A DNA stretch of 64,000 nt from an uncultured Candidatus Saccharibacteria bacterium (GCA_964345445.1 CAYFQT010000038.1:30893-94892), one strand, 5' to 3'; numbered from the stretch's first letter, positions 1 to 45,872 are shown. A program made the numbers and translations. The notes: generated by a model not told the origin, from the sequence alone.

Positions 1-1
1 T

Positions 2-667
2 TCAGCTTTTAATTTTCGGGATGTAATGGATCAGCAAAAAATTCTTTTAGTTAATTTATCGCGAGGGAAAATTGGCGATGTAAACAGTGACCTTCTAGGA
101 ATGATTTTGGTATCTAAATTGCAAATGGCCGCCATGGGTCGAGCTGATATTCCAGAAAGTGAAAGAAAAGATTTTTATTTATATGTTGATGAGTTTCAAA
201 ATTTTGCTACTGATTCTTTTGCTACAATACTTTCCCAGGCTCGAAAATATCATCTTAATTTAATTACTGCTAATCAATATATAGCTCAGCTTGAAGAACA
301 AGTTCGTGATGCGGTTTTTGGCAATATTGGAACATTAATTTGTTTTAGGGTGGGTGCTCAAGATAGCGAATTTTTGGCTCGAGAATTTCATCCAGTATTT
401 TCAGAGAGTGATTTAGTAAATATAGATAGATTTAATACCTATATTAAACTTTTGATTGATGGCACAGCTTCCAGACCTTTTTCTATGCAAACTGTTAAAA
501 CAGAAGGTGAGGAGAACAAAGATGTTACTTTGTCTATTAAAGAGCTTTCTCGCCTGAAATATGGAAAAGATAAAAAAGTTGTAGATAAAGAAATTGGAGA
601 AAGAGTAGATATAGAAAGTGTAAGTGAATTTCCAATATCATCAGGGGAGGAGATGAGGAGAGAATAA
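2..667 (+). CDS. C-terminal part (5' end outside window) of a TraD/TraG/VirD4-like P-loop ATPase; paralog of the C-terminus of the 39630..42482 protein
   Basis: Frame is open from position 2. LYVDEFQNF Walker-B-like motif and ANQYIAQ...VFGNIGTL block align to the C-terminal 200 aa of the 950-aa minus-strand ATPase. Lys/Glu-rich tail. Confidence 0.6.
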   Translation, partial: SAFNFRDVMDQQKILLVNLSRGKIGDVNSDLLGMILVSKLQMAAMGRADIPESERKDFYLYVDEFQNFATDSFATILSQARKYHLNLITANQYIAQLEEQVRDAVFGNIGTLICFRVGAQDSEFLAREFHPVFSESDLVNIDRFNTYIKLLIDGTASRPFSMQTVKTEGEENKDVTLSIKELSRLKYGKDKKVVDKEIGERVDIESVSEFPISSGEEMRRE

Positions 668-728
668 GTTAGTTATAGTTAAGTAGTAAGCAATAAATAA
701 AGAATAAGATTGTCTAAGAGGTAAAAAA

Positions 729-1013
729 ATGGGAGAAAAATTACCAAATTTTGAGGATCATTATAAGGAAATCCAAAAAGAATTACAAGGTGCAGAAAAT
801 AGAGATTTAAGTACAGAAGATAAAGTAGTAGATAGATTAAATTCTTTAGCAGAATCTTTAGGTTTTAAGAACCCTGAAGATAAACAAAGATTTTTCGAGG
901 AGGCAGAAGAAATAGCTGAGAAATCAATCTTTGATTTTAAAAATGAAGATGTAGATAAAATCAAAGATGAATTATGTGATCAATATAGTGATAGTAATAG
1001 AAGAGAAAATTGA
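729..1013 (+). CDS. small highly acidic hypothetical protein
   Basis: 94-aa ORF rich in D/E immediately downstream of the ATPase fragment; no recognisable domain. Confidence 0.35.
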   Translation: MGEKLPNFEDHYKEIQKELQGAENRDLSTEDKVVDRLNSLAESLGFKNPEDKQRFFEEAEEIAEKSIFDFKNEDVDKIKDELCDQYSDSNRREN

Positions 1014-1141: not shown

Positions 1142-1744
1142 ATGTCCAAATTATCTAAATTAGAAGTTATTAGACAAATGTTAGAAAGTGCAGAAAATAA
1201 TATTGCTTCAGCTCGTGAACTTTTAAAAGAAGTTATGGGAATAAAAGGAACAGCAGATGTAAGTAAAAAAGCTAAAAATCTTTCTATCTCTGAGGGGGGA
1301 GAAATAATTGAAGGTGTTTTTGATGGAGAAAATATGATTGGTCCTGATGGTCAAAAATATCCTGTGCCGGCAAATTACGCTTCTAAATCTAAATTAGTTT
1401 TTGGAGATGTATTGAAACTTACTATTACCCAAGACGGTTCTTATATTTATAAACAGATTGGTCCAGTGGAAAGAAAAAAGGTTATTGGAGTATTAACCCA
1501 AGAAGATGATAATTTTAAAGTATTAGCTGAAGGGAAGACTTATAGTGTCCTGCAGGCTTCAGTTACTTATTTTAAAGCCAATATAGGTGATGAAGTAACC
1601 TTAATTGTTCCTAAGATGCAAGAAAGTGATTGGGGTGCTATTGAGAATGTAATTATTAAGCCTCAAAAAGAAGCTGTAACTGCAAAAACACAAAAAGAAG
1701 CAAAAACGCAAAAAGAAAAAGAGAAGAAGAAAAAGAAGAAGTAA
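1142..1744 (+). CDS. hypothetical protein with poly-lysine C-terminal tail
   Basis: 200-aa ORF with good SD (GGGAGG); ends KEKEKKKKKK; no recognised domain. Confidence 0.5.
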   Translation: MSKLSKLEVIRQMLESAENNIASARELLKEVMGIKGTADVSKKAKNLSISEGGEIIEGVFDGENMIGPDGQKYPVPANYASKSKLVFGDVLKLTITQDGSYIYKQIGPVERKKVIGVLTQEDDNFKVLAEGKTYSVLQASVTYFKANIGDEVTLIVPKMQESDWGAIENVIIKPQKEAVTAKTQKEAKTQKEKEKKKKKK

Positions 1745-1766
1745 AATACTTTAGGCGATAAATAAA

Positions 1767-1791
1767 TAGACGGTGACTCCGTCTATTTTTT
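1767..1791 (+). terminator. Rho-independent terminator
   Basis: TAGACGG-TGACT-CCGTCTA hairpin followed by TTTTTT. Confidence 0.6.
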
Positions 1792-1905: not shown

Positions 1906-3516
1906 ATGGTTTCAAAATCAAAAGATATAAAGAAGGAAGTAGTTCTATATCGGAAATGGAGACCTCAGTTTTTTTCTGAGATTATTGCTCAAAATCATAT
2001 TAAAAAAACATTGCAAAATGCTATAATTAAAAATCGTATTTCCCATGCTTATATTTTTTGTGGTCCTCGAGGAACAGGTAAAACATCAGTAGCTCGCCTT
2101 TTAGCTAAAGCAGTTAATTGCACAAATTCTAAGTCAGGAGAGCCATGTAATGAATGTAAAACTTGTTCTGAAACTTCTTCTGGTAGAAGCTTAGATCTTA
2201 TTGAAATTGATGGTGCATCAAATAGGGGGATTGATGAAATTAGAGAATTAAGGGAGAAAATTAGATTCAGTCCTTCTTCTGCTTTATATAAAGTTTTTAT
2301 TATTGATGAAGTTCATATGTTAACTCGCGAAGCTTTTAATGCTTTACTTAAAACTTTAGAAGAACCACCAGAGCATGCTATTTTTATTTTGGTAACTACT
2401 GAAGTACATAAGATCCCTCCCACTGTTCTTTCTCGTTGTCAAAGATTTGATTTTGAAAGAATTTCTATAAAAGATTTAATAAATAGGTTATATTTTATAG
2501 CCAGTAAAGAAAATTTAAATGTAGATAAAAGGGTTTTACAACTTATTGCCCAAAATGCTGAGGGAGGATTACGAGATGCTATTTCTCTTTTAGATCAATT
2601 AGTATCTTATGGAGGGAAGAATATAAATTTAGATCAAATTAGATCAGTTTTAGGCCTTGCTGATATAAAAACCTTGGAAAAGTTAATGGATTTGTTAATT
2701 AAAAAAGATACTACACATGCTATCAAACTTGTAAATGATGTTTTTTCTAAAGGTTATGATCTTCATCAATTTGCAAAAGGAATGATTGAATATTTAAGGA
2801 GTATTTTGATTGTTAAATTAAACCAAGATAATAAAATATTACAGGTATCTCCTGAACAATTTAAGAAAATAATTTCTCAATCAAAAGAAATTAAACTAGA
2901 TGAAGTTTTGTATTTAATAAAATTATTTATTAAAGCAGAAAAAGATTTAAAATCTGCTACTTTTCCTCAATTACCTTTAGAATTAGTATTAGTTGAAGCA
3001 AACAAAGGTAGTTCGAATATTTCTCAAGAAGATATTTCCCCGCCCGACGGCTTTTCTTCCGACAAGATGGGCAAGGCAGGGGGCACGGACAGAGATGTGC
3101 CTATGGCGCAAAAAATAAAGGCAAAAAACAAACCAGCAGATGAAATTAATTCTAAAAAAGATAATATTGACATAAAGAAATTTTTAGATCTTTGGGAGGA
3201 AGTTCTAGAGGAAGTAAAATATTATAATCATTCTGTTCGAGCTTTCCTGAAAGCTTCTCGCCCTGTAGCTATAAAAGACGATGAAATTACTTTAGAATTT
3301 TTCTATCCCTTTCATAAAGAACGGATTGAGGATGATAAGAACCTTTCCTTGGTAGAAAAAGCTGTTTTTAAAGTAACTAAAAAGTCTTATAAGATTCACT
3401 GTATTTTAAGTGATAAAAATATTTCAGGATTTCAAAAGACTCAAAAAAATGATGGTAATGAAGATGGTGGTTTATTTCAAAATGCCCAGAAAATTTTCAA
3501 AGATCAGACAGAATAA
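1906..3516 (+). CDS. dnaX: DNA polymerase III subunit gamma/tau
   Basis: GPRGTGKTS Walker A, IIDEVHML, SRCQRFDF clamp-loader motifs. Confidence 0.9.
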   Translation: MVSKSKDIKKEVVLYRKWRPQFFSEIIAQNHIKKTLQNAIIKNRISHAYIFCGPRGTGKTSVARLLAKAVNCTNSKSGEPCNECKTCSETSSGRSLDLIEIDGASNRGIDEIRELREKIRFSPSSALYKVFIIDEVHMLTREAFNALLKTLEEPPEHAIFILVTTEVHKIPPTVLSRCQRFDFERISIKDLINRLYFIASKENLNVDKRVLQLIAQNAEGGLRDAISLLDQLVSYGGKNINLDQIRSVLGLADIKTLEKLMDLLIKKDTTHAIKLVNDVFSKGYDLHQFAKGMIEYLRSILIVKLNQDNKILQVSPEQFKKIISQSKEIKLDEVLYLIKLFIKAEKDLKSATFPQLPLELVLVEANKGSSNISQEDISPPDGFSSDKMGKAGGTDRDVPMAQKIKAKNKPADEINSKKDNIDIKKFLDLWEEVLEEVKYYNHSVRAFLKASRPVAIKDDEITLEFFYPFHKERIEDDKNLSLVEKAVFKVTKKSYKIHCILSDKNISGFQKTQKNDGNEDGGLFQNAQKIFKDQTE

Positions 3517-6874: not shown

Positions 6875-8650
6875 ATGGACAAATTATCATCTTTTATCAA
6901 AAAACACAAAGTCAAATTGATAGTTGGTTTATTATTAACTGTTATGTTTTTTACAATGCTTGCATCTTCTGTGGGAGATTCAGGAATTGTTGATGAAATA
7001 GCTCATATTCCTGCTGGTTATTCTTATTTAACTACCGGCGATTTTCGAATTAATCCTGAGCATCCTCCTTTGATTAAATCTCTGTCAGCTGTTCCTTTAT
7101 TATTTTTAGGATTGAAATTTCCTTATAAATATTGGCAAGCTTATGGTAATAATCAATGGGAGCTGGGTTGGAAATTTATTTACCATTTTGGTAACAATCC
7201 TGATCGTATCTTTTTTTGGGCTAGAATCCCTATAATTTTATTAGCTTTATTATTAGGTTATTTTGTTTTCAGGTGGGCAAGAGAGCTTTATGGAGCAAAA
7301 GCAGGAATTTTTGCTTTATTTTTATATTCATTTTCTCCTAACATCATTGCCCATTCTCGATTTGTAACTACTGATTTAGGAATGACTATTTTTTATGTAT
7401 TAGCTGTTTATTTTTTTGGTAGATTTTTAAAAAATCCTACTAAGAGAAATGTTGTTATTGCCGGGGTGATTTTTGGATTGGCCCAGTTGGCAAAATTTTC
7501 AGCAGTACTCCTAGGCCCGATATTTATTATCCTTGTGATATTAAAGGCTTATTCTGAGAGTAAATTTATAAAGCAAGAAGATAAATCTTGGATTTCCAAT
7601 TTACTAGCTTATTTGTTTAATAAAAAAGTTTTTAAGAATGGATTAAAATATTTAGCAAAGCTAATTTTAATTTTTACAATTGCTCTTGCCTTAATTCTTT
7701 TGGTTTATTGGGTTCATACATTCCGTATGCCTTTGGCTGTTTGTGAAGATTTAATCAAAGAGTCAATCCCAACTAATCAGAATATTCAAAATGGTCTTAT
7801 TACAATTTCTCACTTTTCTAGACCTTTGGCTCAATATCTTTTAGGATTAGCAATGGTTTTTGCTCATGTAGGAGGAGGTCATACTGCTTTTCTTTTAGGA
7901 GGTTTTTCCAGAGTAGGTTGGTGGTATTATTTCCCCGTTGCTTTTCTTGTAAAAACACCTATTCCTACTTTAATATTTTTAGTTTTAGCTATTGCCTTAA
8001 TTAGAAAATTTAAATGGAAGTTTTCGGAATGGCTTTTAATTGTCCCTGTTATTTTCTATTTTTTAATTAGTATTAAAGGTTCTTTAAATATTGGAGTAAG
8101 ACATCTTCTTCCTATTTATCCATTTATTTTTATTTATGTAAGTAAGTTAGCGCCTGGCATTCAACAATTAGCCCTTAACTCTGTTAAGTTTTCAAAAAAA
8201 TGGCTTTTTAATTCCTTTTATTTATTTTTTGCTATTTTGTGCGGCTGGTATTTATGGACTTCATTATCTATATACCCTTATTATGTTGCTTATTTTAATG
8301 AAGCAATAGGCCCTAAAAATGGTTATAAATATTTAGTTGATTCATCTTTAGATTGGGGTCAGGATTTAAAAAGATTAACTAAATATGTAGAAGAAAATAA
8401 TATTAAAAATATAAAAGTGGATTATTTCGGTGGGGGTGTGCCTCAATATTATATTCCAGATAGCATAGAGTGGCATTCTCAATATGGCAAGACTTCCGGC
8501 CCGATTGCAATTTCGGCTACTTTCTTACAAATGAGCAAGTTCTATGCTCCCTTAGAAAACCAACCTTCTTACCAGTGGATAGAGAAATATGAACCGGAGA
8601 CGGTAATTGGTCATTCGATTTTTGTGTATAATATACCTGAGGAGAAGTAA
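6875..8650 (+). CDS. GT-C family 39/83 (PMT/ArnT-like) integral membrane glycosyltransferase
   Basis: 591 aa, more than 10 TM helices, DEIAHIPAGYSY...EHPPLIK motif in the first periplasmic loop. Confidence 0.8.
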   Translation: MDKLSSFIKKHKVKLIVGLLLTVMFFTMLASSVGDSGIVDEIAHIPAGYSYLTTGDFRINPEHPPLIKSLSAVPLLFLGLKFPYKYWQAYGNNQWELGWKFIYHFGNNPDRIFFWARIPIILLALLLGYFVFRWARELYGAKAGIFALFLYSFSPNIIAHSRFVTTDLGMTIFYVLAVYFFGRFLKNPTKRNVVIAGVIFGLAQLAKFSAVLLGPIFIILVILKAYSESKFIKQEDKSWISNLLAYLFNKKVFKNGLKYLAKLILIFTIALALILLVYWVHTFRMPLAVCEDLIKESIPTNQNIQNGLITISHFSRPLAQYLLGLAMVFAHVGGGHTAFLLGGFSRVGWWYYFPVAFLVKTPIPTLIFLVLAIALIRKFKWKFSEWLLIVPVIFYFLISIKGSLNIGVRHLLPIYPFIFIYVSKLAPGIQQLALNSVKFSKKWLFNSFYLFFAILCGWYLWTSLSIYPYYVAYFNEAIGPKNGYKYLVDSSLDWGQDLKRLTKYVEENNIKNIKVDYFGGGVPQYYIPDSIEWHSQYGKTSGPIAISATFLQMSKFYAPLENQPSYQWIEKYEPETVIGHSIFVYNIPEEK

Positions 8651-37044: not shown

Positions 37045-37884
37045 ATGTTATTTAGAGATTCTAGCCTAAGAAGAAAAAAAAGGATTACAAAAACAAGACA
37101 TCATCCTAAAATTTATGCTAAAAGTTATAGAAGACCTCGCACTCCGAAATCTTTTTTTTCTTTTAAAAAAATTATCATTTTGTTCTTTTTAGGAGCTTTA
37201 TTTTCTGGATTAGTATATTTTATTTTTCTTTCTGGAATTTTCCAAGTTAAAAATATTATTTTAATAAATAATCGTTCAATTATTTTAGAAGAAGTGGAAA
37301 GAACATTAAATCCTATTTATAAAAAGAAATTATTAAATTTAGAATTTAATAATATTTTATTTTTTAAAAGCAGAGAGGCTAAAAATTTGCTTTTGGAGAA
37401 TTATCCTCGTTTAAGTTCTGTTGAAATTAAAAGGAAATTTCCTGATACATTAGAGATTAAAGTCCAAGAGAGAGAAGGGATTATTGTTTGGGATATAGGT
37501 GATAAGAAATATTTGATAGATGAAGAGGGTATTGCTTTTTCTGAATGCTTAGGAGAAAGTAATCTGCCAAATATTACAGATAGTAAAAAACTACCAGTTG
37601 ATTTGAATTCTCAAGTTGTAAATAGTGATTTTGTAAATTTTATTTTACAACTTTCAGAAAAACTACCTAAAGAAGATATATTTATTGGCTCTATTGTTGT
37701 TCCAGAATCAATTTATGATATTGAAATAGAAACTAAAAAAGGTTTTAAAATTTTTTTTGACATTAGAAGAAGTATAGATTCTCAAATTAATAAACTTAGA
37801 ACATTATTAGAGAAAATTGGGGATGAGGTAAATTATATTCAATATATTGATTTGAGAATTGAAAATAAAGTCTTTTATAAATAA
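37045..37884 (+). CDS. ftsQ: cell-division protein FtsQ/DivIB-like
   Basis: Basic N-terminus, single TM, POTRA-like region, in the dcw position after murB. Confidence 0.7.
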   Translation: MLFRDSSLRRKKRITKTRHHPKIYAKSYRRPRTPKSFFSFKKIIILFFLGALFSGLVYFIFLSGIFQVKNIILINNRSIILEEVERTLNPIYKKKLLNLEFNNILFFKSREAKNLLLENYPRLSSVEIKRKFPDTLEIKVQEREGIIVWDIGDKKYLIDEEGIAFSECLGESNLPNITDSKKLPVDLNSQVVNSDFVNFILQLSEKLPKEDIFIGSIVVPESIYDIEIETKKGFKIFFDIRRSIDSQINKLRTLLEKIGDEVNYIQYIDLRIENKVFYK

Positions 37885-37946
37885 AGAGTATCATAAGTGT
37901 CATCGGATATACCTTTGATACTTATTTATAAAGGAGGCATATTAAT

Positions 37947-38288
37947 ATGTGGTGGGCAATTTTAGGATTTGCTTTAGGAATAATTATAGGATTGTTTTTT
38001 ACTTTTTCTATTCCTATACAATATGCTCGATATACAGCAGTAGCTATATTAGCTGCTTTAGATTCTATTTTAGGGGCAGCAAAAGCAGACCTAGAAAATA
38101 GATATTCCAGTCAAATTTTTATCACTGGATTAATATTTAATATGGTTTTGGCAGCTGGAATTACTTTCTTAGGAGATAAATTAGGTTTAGATTTGTATAT
38201 TGCTGTGGTTGTAGCATTTACATTTAGAATGCTTTTGAATATTGGCAAAATCCGCCGTCATATTTTAGAGAGATTTAGAAAGAGATAA
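37947..38288 (+). CDS. sbp: small basic protein Sbp (DUF1290)
   Basis: IP..Y..Y...LAALD...G.....FN..LA..FLG..LG.DLY....F..R...NI..IRR pattern matches B. subtilis Sbp, which sits between divIB and ftsA. Confidence 0.7.
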   Translation: MWWAILGFALGIIIGLFFTFSIPIQYARYTAVAILAALDSILGAAKADLENRYSSQIFITGLIFNMVLAAGITFLGDKLGLDLYIAVVVAFTFRMLLNIGKIRRHILERFRKR

Positions 38289-38325
38289 AAAATAATTTGT
38301 ATTTTAAAATTTTTATATTGATAGT

Positions 38326-38414
38326 ATAGTTTTGCGAAGTAATGAAGAAGTAATGAAGGAGTACATAAGTATTATTAATTTTGAATGTTCTTTTAATTTA
38401 CTTCGCAAAACTAT
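38326..38414. repeat. 17-bp perfect inverted repeat (ATAGTTTTGCGAAGTAA / TTACTTCGCAAAACTAT) around a 55-nt loop
   Basis: The loop itself contains the direct repeat GAAGTAATGAAG x2. Confidence 0.7.
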
Positions 38415-38448
38415 CATTGTCCGACATATTTTCAAATGTAAAATAACA

Positions 38449-38478
38449 CCAGCAGAACCCCTTCCCTGCTGGTTTTTT
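38449..38478 (+). terminator. Rho-independent terminator closing the dcw operon
   Basis: CCAGCAG-AACCCCTTCC-CTGCTGG followed by TTTTTT. Confidence 0.6.
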
Positions 38479-38741
38479 ACACTAATTAAATATATTTTAT
38501 CTTAGAATTACTCTGATAAAATAATAAGACTTTTAGTAATAGAGTTTGCCAAAATTGGTGACTTTTTTAAAAAAAATTAAATTCTATCCCCTATTATGAT
38601 GAAACTTAGTATTTTTTTACTCCAGATCTCTATATTGCTGTTATATTGCTGTAGTGAGGGATTTTAATATAGTTCAGCAATAGCAATAATGTAGATTATT
38701 GAAGTGAAGGTGTTTGATTTTTAAAAAAATAATAAAAGATT

Positions 38742-39188
38742 TTAGTAGTTCACTTCCCTATCTTTCATAATCTTTCCGAAAGTCTCTTTTATTTCTTCAA
38801 AATGTTTTTCTTTTTCTTCCTTAGAATCATTTACACTATCTTTATAAAAATATACCAAAGCCAGACTTTCAGGATTGGAAGTTTCTCCTCCAAAATCTTC
38901 TGCTTTGCCGATTTCTAAAATATGATTTCCAAATTCTATCATATCTGCTTCGTGGTCAGATAGTTCTGTTATTTCATCTTGTTCAAATAATTCCATTTTT
39001 TCTATAATTTCTTCTGATTGCCAATCTACCTCTTGATTTTTTTCATAAGCCAAAGCGGAGATGAATTTCTTCAGTTCCTCAACTTCTCCTTTAATAATAA
39101 TTCTATTAAATTGTTCATCAATTTCTGGTTCTATTTCTATTTCTTCAGTTGGGTCATATTCAGAAGTAGATCCTAAATCCCCAAGCAT
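38742..39188 (-). CDS. highly acidic hypothetical protein (possible DNA-mimic-like)
   Basis: 148 aa, about 30% D/E, downstream (same strand) of the coupling-protein-like ATPase. Confidence 0.45.
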   Translation of the reverse strand: MLGDLGSTSEYDPTEEIEIEPEIDEQFNRIIIKGEVEELKKFISALAYEKNQEVDWQSEEIIEKMELFEQDEITELSDHEADMIEFGNHILEIGKAEDFGGETSNPESLALVYFYKDSVNDSKEEKEKHFEEIKETFGKIMKDREVNY

Positions 39189-39278
39189 TTTTTCCTCTCT
39201 TATTGAAGCCTAATTACATAGACTTCTCCTTTTTCGATAAAATACTTAAAGCATTTTATCAAGTAAAATGATTTAAAA

Positions 39279-39314
39279 AGCAGCTTCAATACATAAAAAG
39301 CTGCTCATTTTTTG
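39279..39314. terminator. bidirectional hairpin terminator
   Basis: AGCAGCTT-CAATACATAAA-AAGCTGCT with T-runs on both strands. Confidence 0.45.
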
Positions 39315-39629
39315 AGTTTTTTGTATAATTTTAATTTTTTTAGAAATTTTATTTTTGTTTTCATTTTTGTATAACGCAGATTAACACTGATATTATAATG
39401 TAGATTATTTTGACGCTGATTTACGCGGATATATATTATAATCGCTGAGTGCCGATTAATCGGCAGGCCCGACTGCAACGCTATGCTTGCATTAGCGGGC
39501 AGGCTACATCTTCAACATCTTGAACAAGTGAGCGGAGCGAACAATATAGCAATTTGAACATTTTATAATTATTTGTGTTTAATTTGTGCATTAAATTCGT
39601 GTTTAATTTGAGAAAGATTCCTGCTTTTT

Positions 39630-42482
39630 TCAACCAGAGTCTGATCTTCCTTTGGACGAAATTTTTACCTCTTCTCCTTCTTTCAACTCATGTGTTTTAC
39701 TTTTTTCTTTTTGTTCTTTTTCTTCAGTTACTGAGTTTTGGGTCTTTTCTTTTGAAGATGAAAGAGTATCAGAAGGTTCTGTGGGTTTATGTGATATCTT
39801 AATTTCTTCTTTTTCTTTTATTGGCCTATGATGTATTATAGAAGGCTTTGCTTCTTTTTTTTCTTCAGCTATTTCTTCTTGAGGTTTTTCTTTTACTTTT
39901 ATACCTTCTTCTTGAGTAACTTCTTCTAAAATATCTTCTGCAGTTATTCTTACCTCTGGGTATTTTTCTACTCTAATAGTTTCTCTGGGTCTTTTTTCTT
40001 TAAATTTCTGAGGTTGAGTTTCTTCTTCGTTTTCCTCTTCTGTTTCTTCTATCCCTGCCCAACGAGCAATTTTTTCTTCTACTACATTTTTTGGGGTGCT
40101 ATATCTTTCTTGTGATAAAAGAATAACCTTTTCTTTATTTTTATTTTCCCCTTTGAGTGGAGGTAAAGTTTGAGCAGAAAAAGCAGGAGAAGTTACCCCA
40201 TTAATAGCAAGTTTTAAATAAATATTATATTTATCCAAATTTACTATATCAGTTTCATCAAAGACTGGGGCTACTTCTTTGGCTAAGAATGTTGCATCTG
40301 CTGCGCCTACTCTAAAGGAAATTAATGTTCCAATATTGCCAAAAACAGCATCACGAACTACTTCAGGCATTTGGGCTATATATTGGTTAGCTACTATTAA
40401 ATTTAATCCATATTTTCTTGCTTCAGATAATATTTTGGCAAATGATTCAGTAGCAAAGTTTTGAAACTCATCAACATATAGATAAAAATCTTTTCTCTGT
40501 TTTTCTGGGATGTCTACTCGACTCATAGCTGCTAACTGGAGTTTAGTAATCATCATTGCTCCTAAAAGAGAAGAATTGTCTTCCCCTATAGTTCCTTGAG
40601 CTAATTTGATTAATAATATTTTTCCTGAATCAATAACTTCTCGCATATCGATAGTGCTTTTAGGCTGCCCTATAATGTTTCTTATTGTTGCCGAAGATAT
40701 AAACTGCCCTACTTTGTTTTGAATTGGAGAAATTGCTTCTGTTACTAAACGAGGATTTGATTGATATCCAGGAAACTCTTGAGTCCAAAATCTTTTTACT
40801 TCTATATCGGTAATTTTCTTAACCACTTTTTTTCTAAATTTTTTATCAGTAAGCATTCGATTTACTGATAACATTGTAGAATTAGGATAATCTAACAAAG
40901 CTAATAAAGTATTTCTTAAAATATGTTCTAATCTAGGACCCCAGGTGAAAGCCCAGATTTTTTGAAAAATGGAAATTAATCCTGAACATATCAACCCTTT
41001 ATAGTCAGGGTCCACAGCTTCTAGTGGATTGAAAGCAATAGGATATTCTCGATCAGAAGGATCAAAGATAATTACATCATTTATTCTTTCAGAGGGAATG
41101 AAATTTAATATATCGTCAATTAGGTCTCCATGAGGGTCCACTACTCCTACTCCTTTTCCTGCTCGGATATCAGAAATAGCCATATTTCTCAACATATTAG
41201 TCTTGCCCATCCCAGTTTTACCAATTAAATACATATGTTTTCTTCTGTCATCAGTTTTTATTCCAAATTTTTGTCTTATATGTCTAAAGTTTGTCTCGGC
41301 AAATAAAGTTAGTTCGCTAGATGGAATAACTTTTTCTTCAATTGGTAAGTTATCAGGAGGTTCTCCTTTTTTAGATTTTGTCCAAGCGATTGTGGGAGTT
41401 TCTACTCCTATAGTTGGAAGATGAAATATTGAAGCTAATTCTTCAGTATTTAAAACAAAGCCAGAGTCGGAAAACAAACGTGCTTTATAGTCTTGAAGAA
41501 AATTTTCACCTTCATAAGTTTTGTCTGATTTGAAACCATTTAGGTTAGCGGTTGAAAATTGTTTAAATGTTCCAATAAGAGATTGAAGATGAGGATTTAC
41601 AATTTGTCCTTTCTTGCAAACATATGCTGCTCTTATTTTTGTATCAAAACCAAGTTTGGATACTTTTTCCTCAATAGCCGAAAGCTGAGTCTCTTGAGCA
41701 GATGAGAGTTGAGGAGGTCCGGAGGCACTTTCTTCAGTGGTTCCTGGTGTAATCAAAGAAGTAATTTGTCCTAAAACTTTAGCTAAAAATCCAAAAGCTG
41801 TTCCTATGCCAAAAGCTTCTGGGTTTCCACCAGCTTTTACTATGTCTATATAAGAAAGACCTTTTTTTTGCCATTCTTCCCCTGAAGGACGAACGAGTAT
41901 TTGAATCCAAATTTGTTCATTATTTTCTTTTAATTTTCCTAAAACCCCAGTGATTCCTGCCAGAGGATCTACTTCGAAATCAGGAAAGGTTTTAATAGGA
42001 AAAAAATCTAATTTGTTTAAGAGAAGTTGAGTGCCCATAATTTGTTTTTCTTTTAAATCAATCTCAGTGTAATCAGGTACTTTTTCAATTTCTACTTCAG
42101 GATATTGGGCATAAATTTGTCCTTCCACAAAATCTCTTAGATGTTCTGGAACCCAAATAAAAAATCCAATTTTTCCATTTGTTGAAGCAATTTCAAAACT
42201 AATGTGTTCTTGTAATGTTCCTTCCAGAAATCTTTTTTTAGTAGGTTTATAAATTCCATGTAGAGAAGCAAACATCATTTCTGCTGCAGTAGGTCCTTTT
42301 TCATTTTCTTTTGGAATATACAAAGATAAAAGAACGTATTTTTGTTGAGAAACCCAGTTTAATTTTCTACGGCTTAAAAAAGACAAAAATAAAAGTAGAG
42401 GTACTAGAAACCATATACCCCAAAATAAAAATTTACCAGTTTGTGGTAATATTTGGCTTAAAATTTTAAATAAGCCTTCCAT
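39630..42482 (-). CDS. membrane-anchored P-loop NTPase of the type IV coupling protein (TraD/TraG/VirD4; FtsK-HerA superfamily) type, with long Glu/Lys-rich C-terminal tail
   Basis: N-terminal TM (FLFWGIWFLVPLLLFLSFL), Walker A GKTGMGKT, Walker B YLYVDEFQNF about 240 aa later, ANQYIAQ block, 220-aa low-complexity EK-rich tail. Confidence 0.7.
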   Translation of the reverse strand: MEGLFKILSQILPQTGKFLFWGIWFLVPLLLFLSFLSRRKLNWVSQQKYVLLSLYIPKENEKGPTAAEMMFASLHGIYKPTKKRFLEGTLQEHISFEIASTNGKIGFFIWVPEHLRDFVEGQIYAQYPEVEIEKVPDYTEIDLKEKQIMGTQLLLNKLDFFPIKTFPDFEVDPLAGITGVLGKLKENNEQIWIQILVRPSGEEWQKKGLSYIDIVKAGGNPEAFGIGTAFGFLAKVLGQITSLITPGTTEESASGPPQLSSAQETQLSAIEEKVSKLGFDTKIRAAYVCKKGQIVNPHLQSLIGTFKQFSTANLNGFKSDKTYEGENFLQDYKARLFSDSGFVLNTEELASIFHLPTIGVETPTIAWTKSKKGEPPDNLPIEEKVIPSSELTLFAETNFRHIRQKFGIKTDDRRKHMYLIGKTGMGKTNMLRNMAISDIRAGKGVGVVDPHGDLIDDILNFIPSERINDVIIFDPSDREYPIAFNPLEAVDPDYKGLICSGLISIFQKIWAFTWGPRLEHILRNTLLALLDYPNSTMLSVNRMLTDKKFRKKVVKKITDIEVKRFWTQEFPGYQSNPRLVTEAISPIQNKVGQFISSATIRNIIGQPKSTIDMREVIDSGKILLIKLAQGTIGEDNSSLLGAMMITKLQLAAMSRVDIPEKQRKDFYLYVDEFQNFATESFAKILSEARKYGLNLIVANQYIAQMPEVVRDAVFGNIGTLISFRVGAADATFLAKEVAPVFDETDIVNLDKYNIYLKLAINGVTSPAFSAQTLPPLKGENKNKEKVILLSQERYSTPKNVVEEKIARWAGIEETEEENEEETQPQKFKEKRPRETIRVEKYPEVRITAEDILEEVTQEEGIKVKEKPQEEIAEEKKEAKPSIIHHRPIKEKEEIKISHKPTEPSDTLSSSKEKTQNSVTEEKEQKEKSKTHELKEGEEVKISSKGRSDSG

Positions 42483-42535: not shown

Positions 42536-43681
42536 CTATTTTTTATTTATCTTTTTTAGCCCATAAGTACATTTTTTTATTCTTGTAAATTGAGGTTTTT
42601 CTTGAAGATTTAAAACTATAGTATTAGGATTTACTTGACGTACTTCTAACACTTTTTTAATAATTTCATCTTTGCTAAGCGGTTTTCCTTCCTTTTCCAA
42701 TATTTCTTTAATAACATTTGCTACTGTTCCTGGTTTAAGCCCCCATTCAGAAAGTCCATAAATTCCTCTTCCTACTAAAACAAATTTTTTATCTTTTACT
42801 AATTCATTATGCACTGCTTGACTGTTTACTGGTTTTTTATCAAAATTTGCTTCGGTAATCATTTGAGCGACTGTTCTAAAATGAACAGGTTTTTTATATT
42901 TTCTTAAAACATATAAAGCTTTGTCTCTTATATTTTTAGGATTAATATTTGACCAATATTTAAGTCCCCATCTGCCATCTTCAGTTTTCATAATATTTCC
43001 ACTTATTTCTAAACAAGATAAGAGAAAGTTATCAGATAACATAAGTTGATTTTGCTTATAAAATTCTTGTATTTTGATTTTTTGTAGAATATAGTCGGAT
43101 TCTTGAACTTTTTGAGCTTTTTGTAGTATTTTCTCAAATGATAAAATTGTAGGTATAGTCAATCTTTGAGGATTTTTTAATAGACTCCAAGATTTTTTTA
43201 ATTTTTCCTGTTTTATTTTGATAAATTTATCTTCTGTTTCTAGGATGAATTTTAAAGCATTAATATTTTCATTACTTTGTTTTATTGAATTTAGGGTTTT
43301 TTGAATAATTTTTTCTTCAGTTAATACTCCCCCACTCTCTTTTATTATTTCTATAAGTAGATTAATTGCTGGGTTTAATATCTTTTTTGAAGAAGGTTGA
43401 TTTATTTTTATAAGACTCATTTTTTCTATTTGACGAATTCGTTCTCGAGATACTGAATATTCTTTTCCAATTTGTTCTAATGTCTGTTTCGCCTCGCCTT
43501 GTAGAGCAAAACGCTTAATTATTACTTCTTTTTCTCTAGGTTTAAGATTTTCAAGAACAGAAGATACTACCTTAGCTGGTTCAAATTCTTGTAAGGCATT
43601 TTTATGATTTATAGATATTATTTTGTCTAAAATAGAAGATTGAGTTTGTTGTTTTTCTTCATTATTCATTTTTTTCTCCAT
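42536..43681 (-). CDS. DNA-binding protein with sigma70 region-4-like HTH and C-terminal HARE-HTH-like winged helix
   Basis: LKPREKEVIIKRFAL...TLEQIGKEYSVSRERIRQIEKMSLIKI matches sigma region 4.2; C-terminal VLVGRGIYGLSEW is the HARE-HTH hallmark. Confidence 0.6.
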   Translation of the reverse strand: MEKKMNNEEKQQTQSSILDKIISINHKNALQEFEPAKVVSSVLENLKPREKEVIIKRFALQGEAKQTLEQIGKEYSVSRERIRQIEKMSLIKINQPSSKKILNPAINLLIEIIKESGGVLTEEKIIQKTLNSIKQSNENINALKFILETEDKFIKIKQEKLKKSWSLLKNPQRLTIPTILSFEKILQKAQKVQESDYILQKIKIQEFYKQNQLMLSDNFLLSCLEISGNIMKTEDGRWGLKYWSNINPKNIRDKALYVLRKYKKPVHFRTVAQMITEANFDKKPVNSQAVHNELVKDKKFVLVGRGIYGLSEWGLKPGTVANVIKEILEKEGKPLSKDEIIKKVLEVRQVNPNTIVLNLQEKPQFTRIKKCTYGLKKINKK

Positions 43682-43907: not shown

Positions 43908-45371
43908 TTATCCTTTAATAACTCCAATAGGTTCCAGTCTAGCTATTTTTTTAGCTAAACCTGCTTTTTCTACTATATTAACAACTATATCTATATCTTT
44001 GTAAGCCTCAGGAGCTTCTTCAGCCAACCCTGGTTTGCTTTTGCACTTTACTATAATACCTCTTTTTCTTAAATCTTCTTCTAATTTTTCTCCCCAAATT
44101 TTTCTTTTAGCTGCTTTGCGGCTTAATACTCGCCCTGCTCCATGACAGACAGATCCAAAAGTATTTTGAGATTTTTCTGCCCCTGTTAATATATAAGAAG
44201 CAGTGCCCATATCACCAGGGATTAGAACTGGTTGTCCATAAGGTTTATAATCTTCTGGTAGGTCAGGATGACCAGGTCTGAAAGCTCGAGTGGCCCCCTT
44301 TCTATGCACACATACCTTAATAGTAGATGGTGATTGGTGGTTAGTGACTGTCTGGTGTTCTTCTATCTTAGCAATATTGTGGGCTACATCGTATAATAAC
44401 TTTAATTGAAAATTTTTTATTTTTCCTGCTAAGGTTTTTTCCCAAATTTTTCTTACTAGATGGGTTAAACATTGTCTGTTAGCCCAAGCAAAATTAGCCG
44501 ATGCACTCATAGCGGAAAAATATTTTTTGCCTTCCTCTGAATCTAAAGGGGCACAAGCCAACTCGGGGTCAGGAAGCTTAATTCTAAAACTTGATAACTT
44601 CCCGTGCATTTCTCTTACATAGTCAGTACAAACTTGGTGTCCTAGTCCTCGAGAGCCAGAATGAATAAAAATAGTTATTTGATCTTTTTTTAAATTAAAT
44701 TTTAAAGCTACATGTTTGTCAAAAATTTGTTTAACAGTCCCTATCTCTAAAAAATGATTTCCAGACCCCAAAGTTCCTAATTGATTAATTCCTCTCTGTT
44801 TTGCTCTTTCACTTACATTTTCTGGATTAACACCTGACATACATCCTTGCTCTTCAGTATGTTCTAAATCTTCTTTTGTTCCATATCCATTTTGGATAGC
44901 CCATCCGCTTCCATTTTTTAGAACTCCATCCATTTGGGAAGAATTAAGTTTTATTTTTCCCCCTCTACCCACTCCGGAGGGGATATTATAAAATAATTCG
45001 TCTAGTAATTTTTCTAAATGAGGTTTTAATTCTTCAAAAGTAACTTCAGAGGTTAGAACTCTTGTTCCACAATTGATGTCGTAACCGACTCCTCCAGGAG
45101 AGATAACACCTCGAGGCAGTTTTGTTGCCGCTACTCCTCCTATAGGAAAGCCATATCCTTCATGAACATCAGGCATAGCAAAAGCATACCCTACAATCCC
45201 AGGTAGAGTGGTTACATTCACTAATTGTTCTAATGACCTGTCTTTCCAAATTGATTGCAAAAGCAATTCATCTGCATAAATTCTGGCCGGAACTCGCATA
45301 TCACTTCTGTAACTTTTAGGAATTTCATATAAATATTCTTCAATTTTTTTCAAATATTTTTGCTCAATCAT
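43908..45371 (-). CDS. rtcB: RNA-splicing ligase RtcB
   Basis: GSGNHFLEIG, HNIAKIEEH and other RtcB signature blocks, 487 aa. Confidence 0.92.
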   Translation of the reverse strand: MIEQKYLKKIEEYLYEIPKSYRSDMRVPARIYADELLLQSIWKDRSLEQLVNVTTLPGIVGYAFAMPDVHEGYGFPIGGVAATKLPRGVISPGGVGYDINCGTRVLTSEVTFEELKPHLEKLLDELFYNIPSGVGRGGKIKLNSSQMDGVLKNGSGWAIQNGYGTKEDLEHTEEQGCMSGVNPENVSERAKQRGINQLGTLGSGNHFLEIGTVKQIFDKHVALKFNLKKDQITIFIHSGSRGLGHQVCTDYVREMHGKLSSFRIKLPDPELACAPLDSEEGKKYFSAMSASANFAWANRQCLTHLVRKIWEKTLAGKIKNFQLKLLYDVAHNIAKIEEHQTVTNHQSPSTIKVCVHRKGATRAFRPGHPDLPEDYKPYGQPVLIPGDMGTASYILTGAEKSQNTFGSVCHGAGRVLSRKAAKRKIWGEKLEEDLRKRGIIVKCKSKPGLAEEAPEAYKDIDIVVNIVEKAGLAKKIARLEPIGVIKG

Positions 45372-45467: not shown

Positions 45468-45872
45468 CTATATATCAAATATAATCTGAGCTTGCCAAAT
45501 TCCTTTTTTTTCTTCTATTTTTAAATCATGATAGGTAGCAGCTTTGATTTCTAACTTTATATCAGAAGTTTTCATACCTTTAACTTCCGCTTCAATTTCT
45601 TTTTCATTTAGTTTTTTAATGTTAAATTGACTGTATATTTCTTGATTTGCATCATATAAATATAAGAGCTCATTTAAAAAGTCAATGAGTAAATCTTGAA
45701 TATTGCTAGCTTTAAGTCTTATTTCTCGTTTAATTTCAGGGGTAATTTTATTTAAATCAACCATATTGGAGAACATTGCATAGGCACTGTTTATAAAAAG
45801 CTCAGATAATTCTTTTCCATATGCTCGGATAGCTAAGTCAGCTATGTGTTCTAAATTTTCAAATTTTTTCAT
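45468..45872 (-). CDS. archease (RtcB activator)
   Basis: MKKFENLEHIADLAIRAYGKELSELF matches the archease N-terminal consensus; adjacent to rtcB. Confidence 0.8.
   Translation of the reverse strand: MKKFENLEHIADLAIRAYGKELSELFINSAYAMFSNMVDLNKITPEIKREIRLKASNIQDLLIDFLNELLYLYDANQEIYSQFNIKKLNEKEIEAEVKGMKTSDIKLEIKAATYHDLKIEEKKGIWQAQIIFDI

Follow-up and report, generated by a model that had tools for sequence, protein, structure and literature searches.

The window, by which we mean the whole 64-kb stretch of DNA analysed here (64,000 nucleotides, 30.5% GC), opens inside a gene for a predicted VirD4/TrwB-like ATPase, P1. It holds the 3′ end of this gene on the plus strand (positions 2..667), the C-terminal 221 codons of which translate into a segment with the Walker B motif YLYVDEFQNF and a short charged tail. 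The ORF in this frame is open at the left edge of the window, and the N-terminal 627 residues of P1 lie beyond it. Next on the plus strand, 61 nt 3′ of P1 and preceded by a GAGG ribosome-binding site, is ac94 (729..1013), encoding an acidic protein of 94 aa (pI 4.46, 29% D+E), followed by p200 (1142..1744), encoding a basic protein of 200 aa (pI 9.2) that is a widely conserved 3′ neighbour of the ATPase. The second ATPase gene, P2, lies on the minus strand (39630..42482) and encodes 950 aa. From the N-terminus, P2 has a hydrophobic segment, a DUF8128 region, the VirD4/TrwB-like ATPase and, over its last 139 aa, an E/K-rich tail. Its conserved 5′ neighbour is sig381 (42536..43681, minus strand), a 381-aa protein in which Pfam recognizes sigma-70 region 4 and a HARE-HTH domain. 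On its 3′ side, 441 bp away, is ac148 (38742..39188, minus strand), a 148-aa acidic protein (pI 4.21, 29% D+E) and the last gene of the minus-strand replichore. A small acidic ORF on the same strand does indeed follow each ATPase, as the initial annotation had reported, and the two have the highest D+E fractions among the ~65 ORFs of the window. Otherwise the window is a housekeeping region with dnaX, dnaB, glycosyltransferases, ybaB, recR, corA, cysS, a P-type ATPase, GDH, recO, an aminoacyl-tRNA synthetase, the mraZ-rsmH-ftsI-mur-ftsW-ftsQ genes, DUF1290, RtcB with archease and a bactofilin, while Rfam finds a single tRNA. No VirB4, relaxase or integrase gene is present in the 64 kb.

The missing part of P1 was recovered from a 16.7-kb contig (L001, GCA_012975005.1), which was reached by an exact-sequence lookup of ac94 and is 99.9% identical to positions 1-2297 of the window. 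Here, P1 is complete (L001:7393-9939) and encodes 848 aa with both nucleotide-binding motifs intact, Walker A as GKSGVGKS at residue 436 and Walker B as YLYVDE at residue 686. A Kyte-Doolittle scan gives one hydrophobic stretch at approximately residues 11-44, and the fragment in the window matches Pfam TraG-D_C with 29 bits (cutoff 22). The truncated ORF is thus a real paralog, as had been proposed, and not the short pseudogene remnant that would have counted against that proposal. That the ORF is cut by the window edge could otherwise suggest a decaying remnant, or a piece of a mobile element (an ICE or prophage) that brought in a second coupling protein, and the PHROGs family phrog_5156, which matches both P1 and P2 over their full length (E 5e-88), would fit such an origin. 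The intact gene on the near-identical contig has already refuted this explanation, and its probability is now negligible. The genes around P1 on L001 are TGT, ribosomal proteins L10/L12, dnaX and dnaB, this synteny is kept across relatives, and no relaxase or VirB4 gene occurs in the 10 kb 5′ of the window in L001. The 2.9 million contigs of IMG/VR contain one relative, against 502 in the GTDB species representatives, and the window has no integrase or relaxase. An origin in a defence system or a phage was likewise rejected; PADLOC returned only domain-level matches on the window (mad8, HerA, MzaA region 4), and the single IMG/VR relative stands despite the phrog_5156 match.

We compared the two ATPases first over the shared fragment and then over the full proteins. 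P2 has Walker A as GKTGMGKT at residue 421 and Walker B as YLYVDE at residue 667, one hydrophobic stretch at approximately residues 15-38 (again by Kyte-Doolittle scan), and Pfam matches to TrwB_AAD_bind, with 43.8 bits against a cutoff of 20.5, and to TraG-D_C, with 25.4 bits against a cutoff of 22. The P1 fragment aligns with residues 609-816 of P2 at 58.7% identity over 208 aa (BLASTP E 2e-78), with 65.5% identity across the first 165 residues, which belong to the ATPase domain, and 33% in the tail. The homology had been described as 65-70% identity to the last 200 aa of P2, covering both the LYVDEFQNF block and the EK-rich tail. The homology itself and the Walker B block stand, and the quoted identity is reached in the ATPase domain; the overall value is lower, the match ends at residue 816 of 950, and P1, the shorter protein, has nothing equivalent to the E/K-rich tail of P2 (residues 812-950, 26% E and 17% K). 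Full-length P1 and P2 are 43% identical over 760 aa and are therefore paralogs over their whole length. This divergence, together with the presence of both P1-type and P2-type proteins across CPR classes, indicates that the duplication is old.

By their domain composition, P1 and P2 belong to the ‘orphan’ VirD4/TrwB-like ATPases of Patescibacteria and have a DUF8128 N-domain. Precomputed Pfam annotation places DUF8128 (PF26449) in the N-terminal half of full-length P1, of P1 orthologs and of P2 orthologs; a local Pfam run did not report it on P2 itself. Their closest solved structures by sequence in the PDB are DotL/IcmO and TrwB (E ~7e-5). Among the NCBIfam TraD/VirD4 equivalogs, the best match is SXT_TraD with 50.3 bits against a cutoff of 366, and the remaining matches stay below 31 bits against cutoffs of at least 250; on these scores, P1 and P2 cannot be taken as orthologs of conjugative coupling proteins. 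P1 and P2 share with the type IV coupling proteins (VirD4/TraD/TrwB/DotL; Pfam TrwB_AAD_bind, T4SS-DNA_transf and TraG-D_C) a P-loop domain of the FtsK/HerA type in which both Walker motifs are present, a hydrophobic N-terminal segment that precedes this domain and is a putative membrane anchor, and a Walker A-B spacing of ~240-245 aa that is compatible with an all-alpha insertion. The long charged C-terminal tail of P2 further recalls DotL and F TraD. In contrast to the coupling proteins, P1 and P2 carry an additional domain of ~350 aa, DUF8128, between anchor and ATPase, have one hydrophobic segment in place of the usual two, lack relaxase or mating-pair-formation genes nearby, and are chromosomal, core genes present as two paralogs.

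This kind of protein has already been published, at about two copies per genome and mostly distant from virB4. The passages of Quinonero-Coronel et al. (2025, PMC12102498) available to us describe orphan T4CP homologues of the same family, with 5,713 VirD4-type homologues in 2,918 Patescibacteria genomes, of which 148 are near virB4, and the authors suggest there that the VirD4-type homologue was possibly exapted and leave its role open. Those passages do not include DUF8128, the P1 and P2 subfamilies, the p200 and sigma-4/HARE-HTH neighbours or the acidic neighbours, all of which come from the present analysis, and we found no mention of DUF8128 in the literature. The 80 relatives that we kept from the 502 in GTDB all come from Patescibacteria MAGs. 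Some of these 80 entries bear wrong organism labels. A scan of metagenome contigs with the P1 fragment recovered relatives at 53-62% identity only, none of them from the narrow clade of the source genome.

The relative placement of the two ATPases follows from the architecture of the window. The coding strand changes at ~38.3 kb, every gene to the left being plus-strand and every gene to the right minus-strand, and the sign of the GC skew flips at the same point. This switch coincides with a convergent intergenic region (38289..38741), a likely replication terminus, which contains a terminator-like hairpin on the minus strand (38473..38448). From the strand switch and the skew flip we conclude that the window spans the probable terminus and that both ATPase genes are co-oriented with replication. 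A palindrome at the skew switch (CAATAA-TGTAGA-TTATTG, 38685..38702) was considered as a dif site; it is not conserved in relatives, and the assignment is unsupported. P1 and P2 do lie on opposite strands, 38,963 bp apart, with dnaX (1906..3516) through FtsQ/DUF1290 (37045..38288) between them, in agreement with the earlier description of two copies ~39 kb apart that flank a dnaX-to-dcw core. Their inverted orientation is what a terminus-spanning window gives when genes are co-oriented with replication, and it is no sign of an inversion. The initial annotation had proposed to test whether the 39-kb segment is inverted in related genomes; the closest long-scaffold relative (ERZ23486233 scaffold_11) has the same layout, with P2 (~198-201 kb) and P1 (~241-244 kb) also convergent and ~40 kb apart. 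An apparent sequence difference between the window and the contig L003, at 39467..39552, is merely a run of N in the L003 assembly.

In Berkelbacteria-like relatives, the two ATPase genes are tandem and co-directional, in the order TGT, a small ORF, P1 (~830 aa), a gene for 170-190 aa, sometimes a sigma-like gene, and P2 (~940-1100 aa). The tandem P1-p200-(sig381)-P2 arrangement was found at loci L012-L017, L020-L024, L028, L035, L036 and L057. The order TGT, small ORF, P1, p200 is common to relatives and the source genome. A single inversion of the dnaX-to-sig381 segment was considered as the route between the tandem and split layouts and was dropped, since P2 converges on SecF/SecD/ManC in the tandem lineages and not on the dcw cluster; in many other lineages, as here, the sigma-like gene and P2 run convergently toward ftsQ-murB-murC. 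The split layout of the nearest long-scaffold relative and the adjacency of p200 and dnaX in a genome without P1 there also speak against such an inversion.

We then asked what the two acidic genes are. Neither ac94 nor ac148 has a match in Pfam, NCBIfam, PADLOC or PHROGs. A word-based search of 5.8 billion proteins with ac94 returned only itself. The notion that ac94 is an ORFan was dropped when direct comparison of syntenic ORFs in close relatives revealed homologs. ORFs of this type lie between P1 and p200 at four loci (L089, 85 aa; L091, 79 aa; L093, 81 aa; L094, 92 aa), with BLASTP E values of 7e-14 for L089 and 1e-10 for L091, and each of the four can be aligned with ac94 (alignment A2). 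They are 25-43% identical to ac94, while the flanking P1 and p200 are 77-93% identical. At the base composition of the window, an ORF of 80 codons would survive by chance with a probability of ~0.001, and ac94 is therefore taken as a real, fast-evolving gene. The P1-ac94 gap shows no terminator, p200 has a promoter-like site on its 5′ side, and a strong intrinsic-terminator-like hairpin with a T-run (1764..1788, plus strand; 10-bp stem with 4 GC pairs) closes the P1-ac94-p200 unit before dnaX. Because the gap is only 61 nt and holds no terminator, ac94 is probably co-transcribed with P1.

The acidic gene behind P2 has a different history of conservation. A search with ac148 gave three homologs at 61-75% identity, and its orthologs in L084, L087 and L088 all lie directly 3′ of P2 orthologs; on contigs that extend far enough, the gene order reads RtcB, the sigma-like gene, P2 and ac148. 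A profile search against 1.84 billion representatives extended the family by just three distant relatives, two of which (P0126 and P0127) sit on contigs of 784 and 1385 bp, too short to provide context. Where P2 is 74-78% identical, ac148 is 60-75% identical, and it is therefore under ordinary constraint. In L004, the next relative out, in which P2 is 56% identical, ac148 is absent. A terminator-like hairpin with a 10-bp stem and a U-run (39273..39306, minus strand) separates it from P2, ~85 nt 5′ of the ac148 start codon, and equivalent hairpins occur shortly 5′ of the start in the three orthologous loci. In all four genomes these hairpins fold at -11.7 to -15.7 kcal/mol (z -2.7 to -5.7). Since the hairpin and U-run precede ac148 at all four loci, ac148 is probably a separate transcription unit or depends on read-through. 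Its predicted structure is a compact alpha/beta fold, modelled with confidence. A Foldseek search with this model returned nothing significant (best E 0.25), and a comparison with SycN gave a weak match, with 7% identity, 75 of 148 residues aligned and a different order of secondary-structure elements.

When aligned, as the initial annotation had recommended, the two acidic proteins prove unrelated in sequence. BLASTP detects no similarity (E 0.66), and comparison of the two family alignments with hhalign gives a probability of 0.9% (E 0.059). A motif that appeared common to both, EKxxFFEE...GK.I (BLASTP E 0.06-0.07), was rejected on the same hhalign probability of 0.9%. Outside their clade both families disappear. 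Homologs of ac94 and ac148 are absent from 80 GTDB ATPase loci (phmmer, E up to 10), and the two families are absent from 80 further metagenome loci of the ATPase family, searched by hmmsearch with the family HMMs, the E cutoffs over the two sets being 1-10. Small acidic genes on the same strand 3′ of the ATPase are also unenriched in general, at ~3-4 of 85 GTDB loci and 1 of 71 metagenome loci, as compared with a background of 6%. Neither acidic gene is found once ATPase identity drops below 74%, and the expectation that acidic partners would recur at homologous loci holds within the clade (L089, L091, L093 and L094 for ac94; L084, L087 and L088 for ac148) and fails at the 160 other loci.

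These results bear on the proposal that an ATPase and a small acidic partner form a functional two-gene module, either duplicated as a whole or repeatedly selected, in which the acidic protein would be a dedicated adaptor or chaperone in the manner of IcmS/IcmW on the DotL tail or of secretion chaperones on their substrates. We consider this quite unlikely. It would account for the position of the two most acidic ORFs of the window behind the two paralogs, for the retention of each adjacency in at least three other genomes of the clade, for the probable co-transcription of ac94 with P1, and for the small acidic ORF that often precedes P1-type genes elsewhere. In their small size (~120-150 aa in the chaperone class) and acidic pI, ac148 and ac94 also resemble the CesT/SycE/SycN-type secretion chaperones, whose fold runs alpha-beta-beta-beta-alpha-beta-beta-alpha. 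However, the partners are not homologous, they are missing from 160 loci outside a shallow clade where acidic 3′ genes are not enriched, and the ATPase duplication is far older than either of them. Synteny at 74-84% protein identity is, moreover, expected from descent alone, and the conserved terminator-like hairpin splits P2 from ac148. With the T4CP adaptors and chaperones (IcmS/IcmW/LvgA on the DotL tail, VirE1, T3SS class I chaperones such as SycN), ac94 and ac148 share no sequence similarity, and ac148 sits behind that hairpin; the likeness to SycN is weak. As far as sequence comparison can tell, ac94 and ac148 are unrelated, young, clade-specific genes that were added independently, and the conserved two-gene module that had been suggested holds as shallow synteny only, being by these comparisons neither duplicated as a unit nor a family-wide trait.

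The deeply conserved neighbours are others, namely p200 after P1, sig381 before P2 and, often, a small acidic ORF before P1. Of 160 loci, at least 29 have p200 on the 3′ side of the ATPase (at least 25 from GTDB and 4 from metagenomes); the protein, which no Pfam family covers, has more than 8000 homologs. In its predicted structure, a long N-terminal helix is followed by two beta-barrels of OB/S1/cold-shock-like type and, at the C-terminus, a K-rich helix; the barrels are five-stranded and resemble those of S1, CSD and IF1, as expected of an OB-fold protein. At L092, p200 adjoins dnaX with no ATPase, and p200 may therefore belong to replication and not to the ATPase. The sig381 gene is immediately 5′ of P2-type ATPases in 35 of 74 loci. 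On the P1 side, a small ORF precedes the ATPase on the same strand in 52 of 76 loci, and 25 of these 52 ORFs have a pI below 5, a share that is 14% among background small ORFs (p 4e-9). By sequence, these P1-preceding ORFs form several clusters; the ORF preceding P1 in the source genome (L001:6963-7316) encodes 117 aa with a pI of 5.3. In view of these ORFs and of the position of ac94 and ac148, some real functional affinity of the ATPases for small acidic proteins is conceivable.

The conserved neighbours also weigh on a further explanation, in which P1 and P2 are trans-encoded coupling proteins of a T4SS encoded elsewhere, and the acidic proteins are secreted substrates or effectors, or substrate-specific adaptors. 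We regard this as unlikely, if a little less so than the module. The T4CP-type domains and the nearest solved relatives, DotL and TrwB, count for it; recognisable coupling proteins are missing from patescibacterial T4SS clusters (PMC10633639), and T4CP genes are often away from virB4 in the passages of Quinonero-Coronel et al. (2025, PMC12102498). The rapid divergence of ac94 relative to its neighbours is also of a kind often seen in effectors and antigenic proteins. However, no T4SS gene lies within the 64 kb, and the conserved partners have nucleic-acid-binding folds and are not secretion components. In addition, the same passages report that the t4cp homologue of S. epibionticum is non-essential for epibiotic growth, while the T4SS genes are essential.

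The account that we hold to be probable is that P1 is one of two ancient chromosomal paralogous ATPases, that its acidic neighbour and that of P2 are clade-specific additions, and that the ATPases work as translocases, the last point being our inference. P1 and P2 are one of each paralog, as is typical of Patescibacteria (CPR), situated away from type IV secretion genes, and both are predicted to be membrane-anchored, VirD4/TrwB-like members of the FtsK-HerA superfamily with a DUF8128 N-domain. The surroundings of P1 comprise TGT, a small and often acidic ORF, P1 and p200, and those of P2 comprise sig381 and then P2, with the two neighbourhoods fused in tandem in Berkelbacteria-like relatives. 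In the clade of the source genome the two face each other on opposite strands with dnaX-to-dcw between them because their neighbourhoods are on opposite replichores flanking the terminus. Within this arrangement, ac94 is a fast-evolving gene inside the probable P1-p200 operon, and ac148 is probably a separate unit behind a terminator-like hairpin after P2. P1 and P2 may then act as ATP-driven hexameric membrane translocases on nucleic acid, with the OB-fold protein p200 and the HTH protein sig381 as putative nucleic-acid-binding partners. The acidic proteins, if they are linked to this function at all, could have an accessory role, as adaptors or regulators attaching to basic or charged surfaces on the ATPase tail or on p200.

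A more ambitious version would make the paired ATPases a Patescibacteria-specific, T4SS-independent membrane machine by which nucleic acid is moved or processed, with the P1-preceding ORF, p200 and sig381 as its partners and ac94 and ac148 as lineage-specific adaptors, regulators or substrates. We think it improbable in this form. The P1-preceding ORF is acidic in approximately half of the lineages, and the acidity of ac94 and ac148 would serve to imitate nucleic acid or to contact the charged ATPase tails.

The reading of P1 and P2 as ancient chromosomal paralogs with recently added acidic neighbours introduces no system of a new kind. Few unexplained proteins of the Patescibacteria are as widespread as the orphan VirD4-like ATPases, at about two per genome, and the comparison presented here tells their conserved neighbours (an OB-fold protein, a sigma-4/HARE-HTH protein and a frequent acidic ORF before P1) apart from the local additions ac94 and ac148. 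It also serves as a warning that shallow synteny can be misread as a conserved module. For the ATPase family as a whole, the conserved neighbours focus the question of function on the nucleic-acid substrate and on the binding of p200 and sig381.

A small open reading frame lies directly ahead of, and on the same strand as, the P1-type gene for the VirD4/TrwB-like ATPase with DUF8128 in 52 of 76 loci, among them L007, L013, L015-L017 and L035. In the near-identical contig that carries the full P1 (L001), this ORF occupies positions 6963-7316, just to the left of the window. These upstream ORFs fall into several sequence clusters and do not form one family. Of the 52, 25 have a pI below 5; among background small ORFs the share is 14% (p 4e-9). 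The Berkelbacteria-like versions encode 104-110 residues with a pI of about 4.1, are rich in Pro, Glu and Gln, and carry a short, conserved motif at the C-terminus.

On the downstream side, the 200-aa protein p200 (1142..1744) belongs to no Pfam family, although its homologs number more than 8000. Its predicted fold consists of a long helix followed by two OB/S1-like barrels and a Lys-rich helix. In many CPR lineages its gene follows a VirD4-like ATPase or directly precedes dnaX. Two relatives carry a charged ORF of 217-232 aa between p200 and the gene of the type encoding the acidic 94-aa protein (L091:3352-4050 and L093:744-1397), which is absent from the genome of the window. The neighboring dnaX encodes 536 aa in the window (1906..3516) versus 601 aa in L001 (11178-12983), a contig that is 98-99.9% identical to the window. 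The BLAST segments have an overlap of about 200 bp, pointing to either a tandem duplication or a difference in repeat number within the gene.

At the second locus, an RtcB RNA ligase (43908..45371) and its adjacent activator archease (45468..45872) are encoded on the minus strand just upstream of the sigma-like gene sig381 and the paralogous ATPase P2. L084 and L085, both close relatives, share the order RtcB, sig381, P2; in L004, other genes intervene between RtcB and the downstream sig381-P2 pair. Between P2 and the acidic 148-aa protein ac148, a minus-strand hairpin followed by a U-run (39273..39306), about 85 nt upstream of the ac148 start, looks like a terminator, and equivalents occur in the orthologous spacers of L084, L087 and L088, such that all four genomes, including the window, carry it. 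The same AT-rich spacer contains a GC-rich segment of about 110 nt (39440..39550, minus strand; ~55% GC) with a predicted multi-stem fold (-40.7 kcal/mol, z -2.96). This segment has no Rfam match; 29 nt of it are conserved in L087, it is absent from the orthologous spacers of L084 and L088, and assembly L003 has an N-gap at its position. Beyond ac148, the coding strand changes at 38289..38741 together with the sign of the GC skew, and this interval is therefore the likely terminus of replication. A perfect 17-nt inverted repeat lies within it (about 38327-38343 and 38400-38416), as does a dif-like palindrome, CAATAA-TGTAGA-TTATTG (38685..38702), the latter not conserved in relatives.

Both P1 and P2 match the PHROGs family of unknown function phrog_5156 over their full length (E 5e-88), although IMG/VR holds only one relative; phrog_5156 probably originates from CPR sequence classed as prophage. 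In Parcubacteria-type genomes, a simple ORF caller splits the ATPase into two successive ORFs, one covering DUF8128 and the other, of ~550-620 aa, the ATPase part (L042, L051, L055, L058, L061, L064, L066, L069, L074, L075, L078, L079 and L081). Frameshifts or the simple caller itself may also cause such a split; the two-ORF calls suggest that DUF8128 can be a separate polypeptide.
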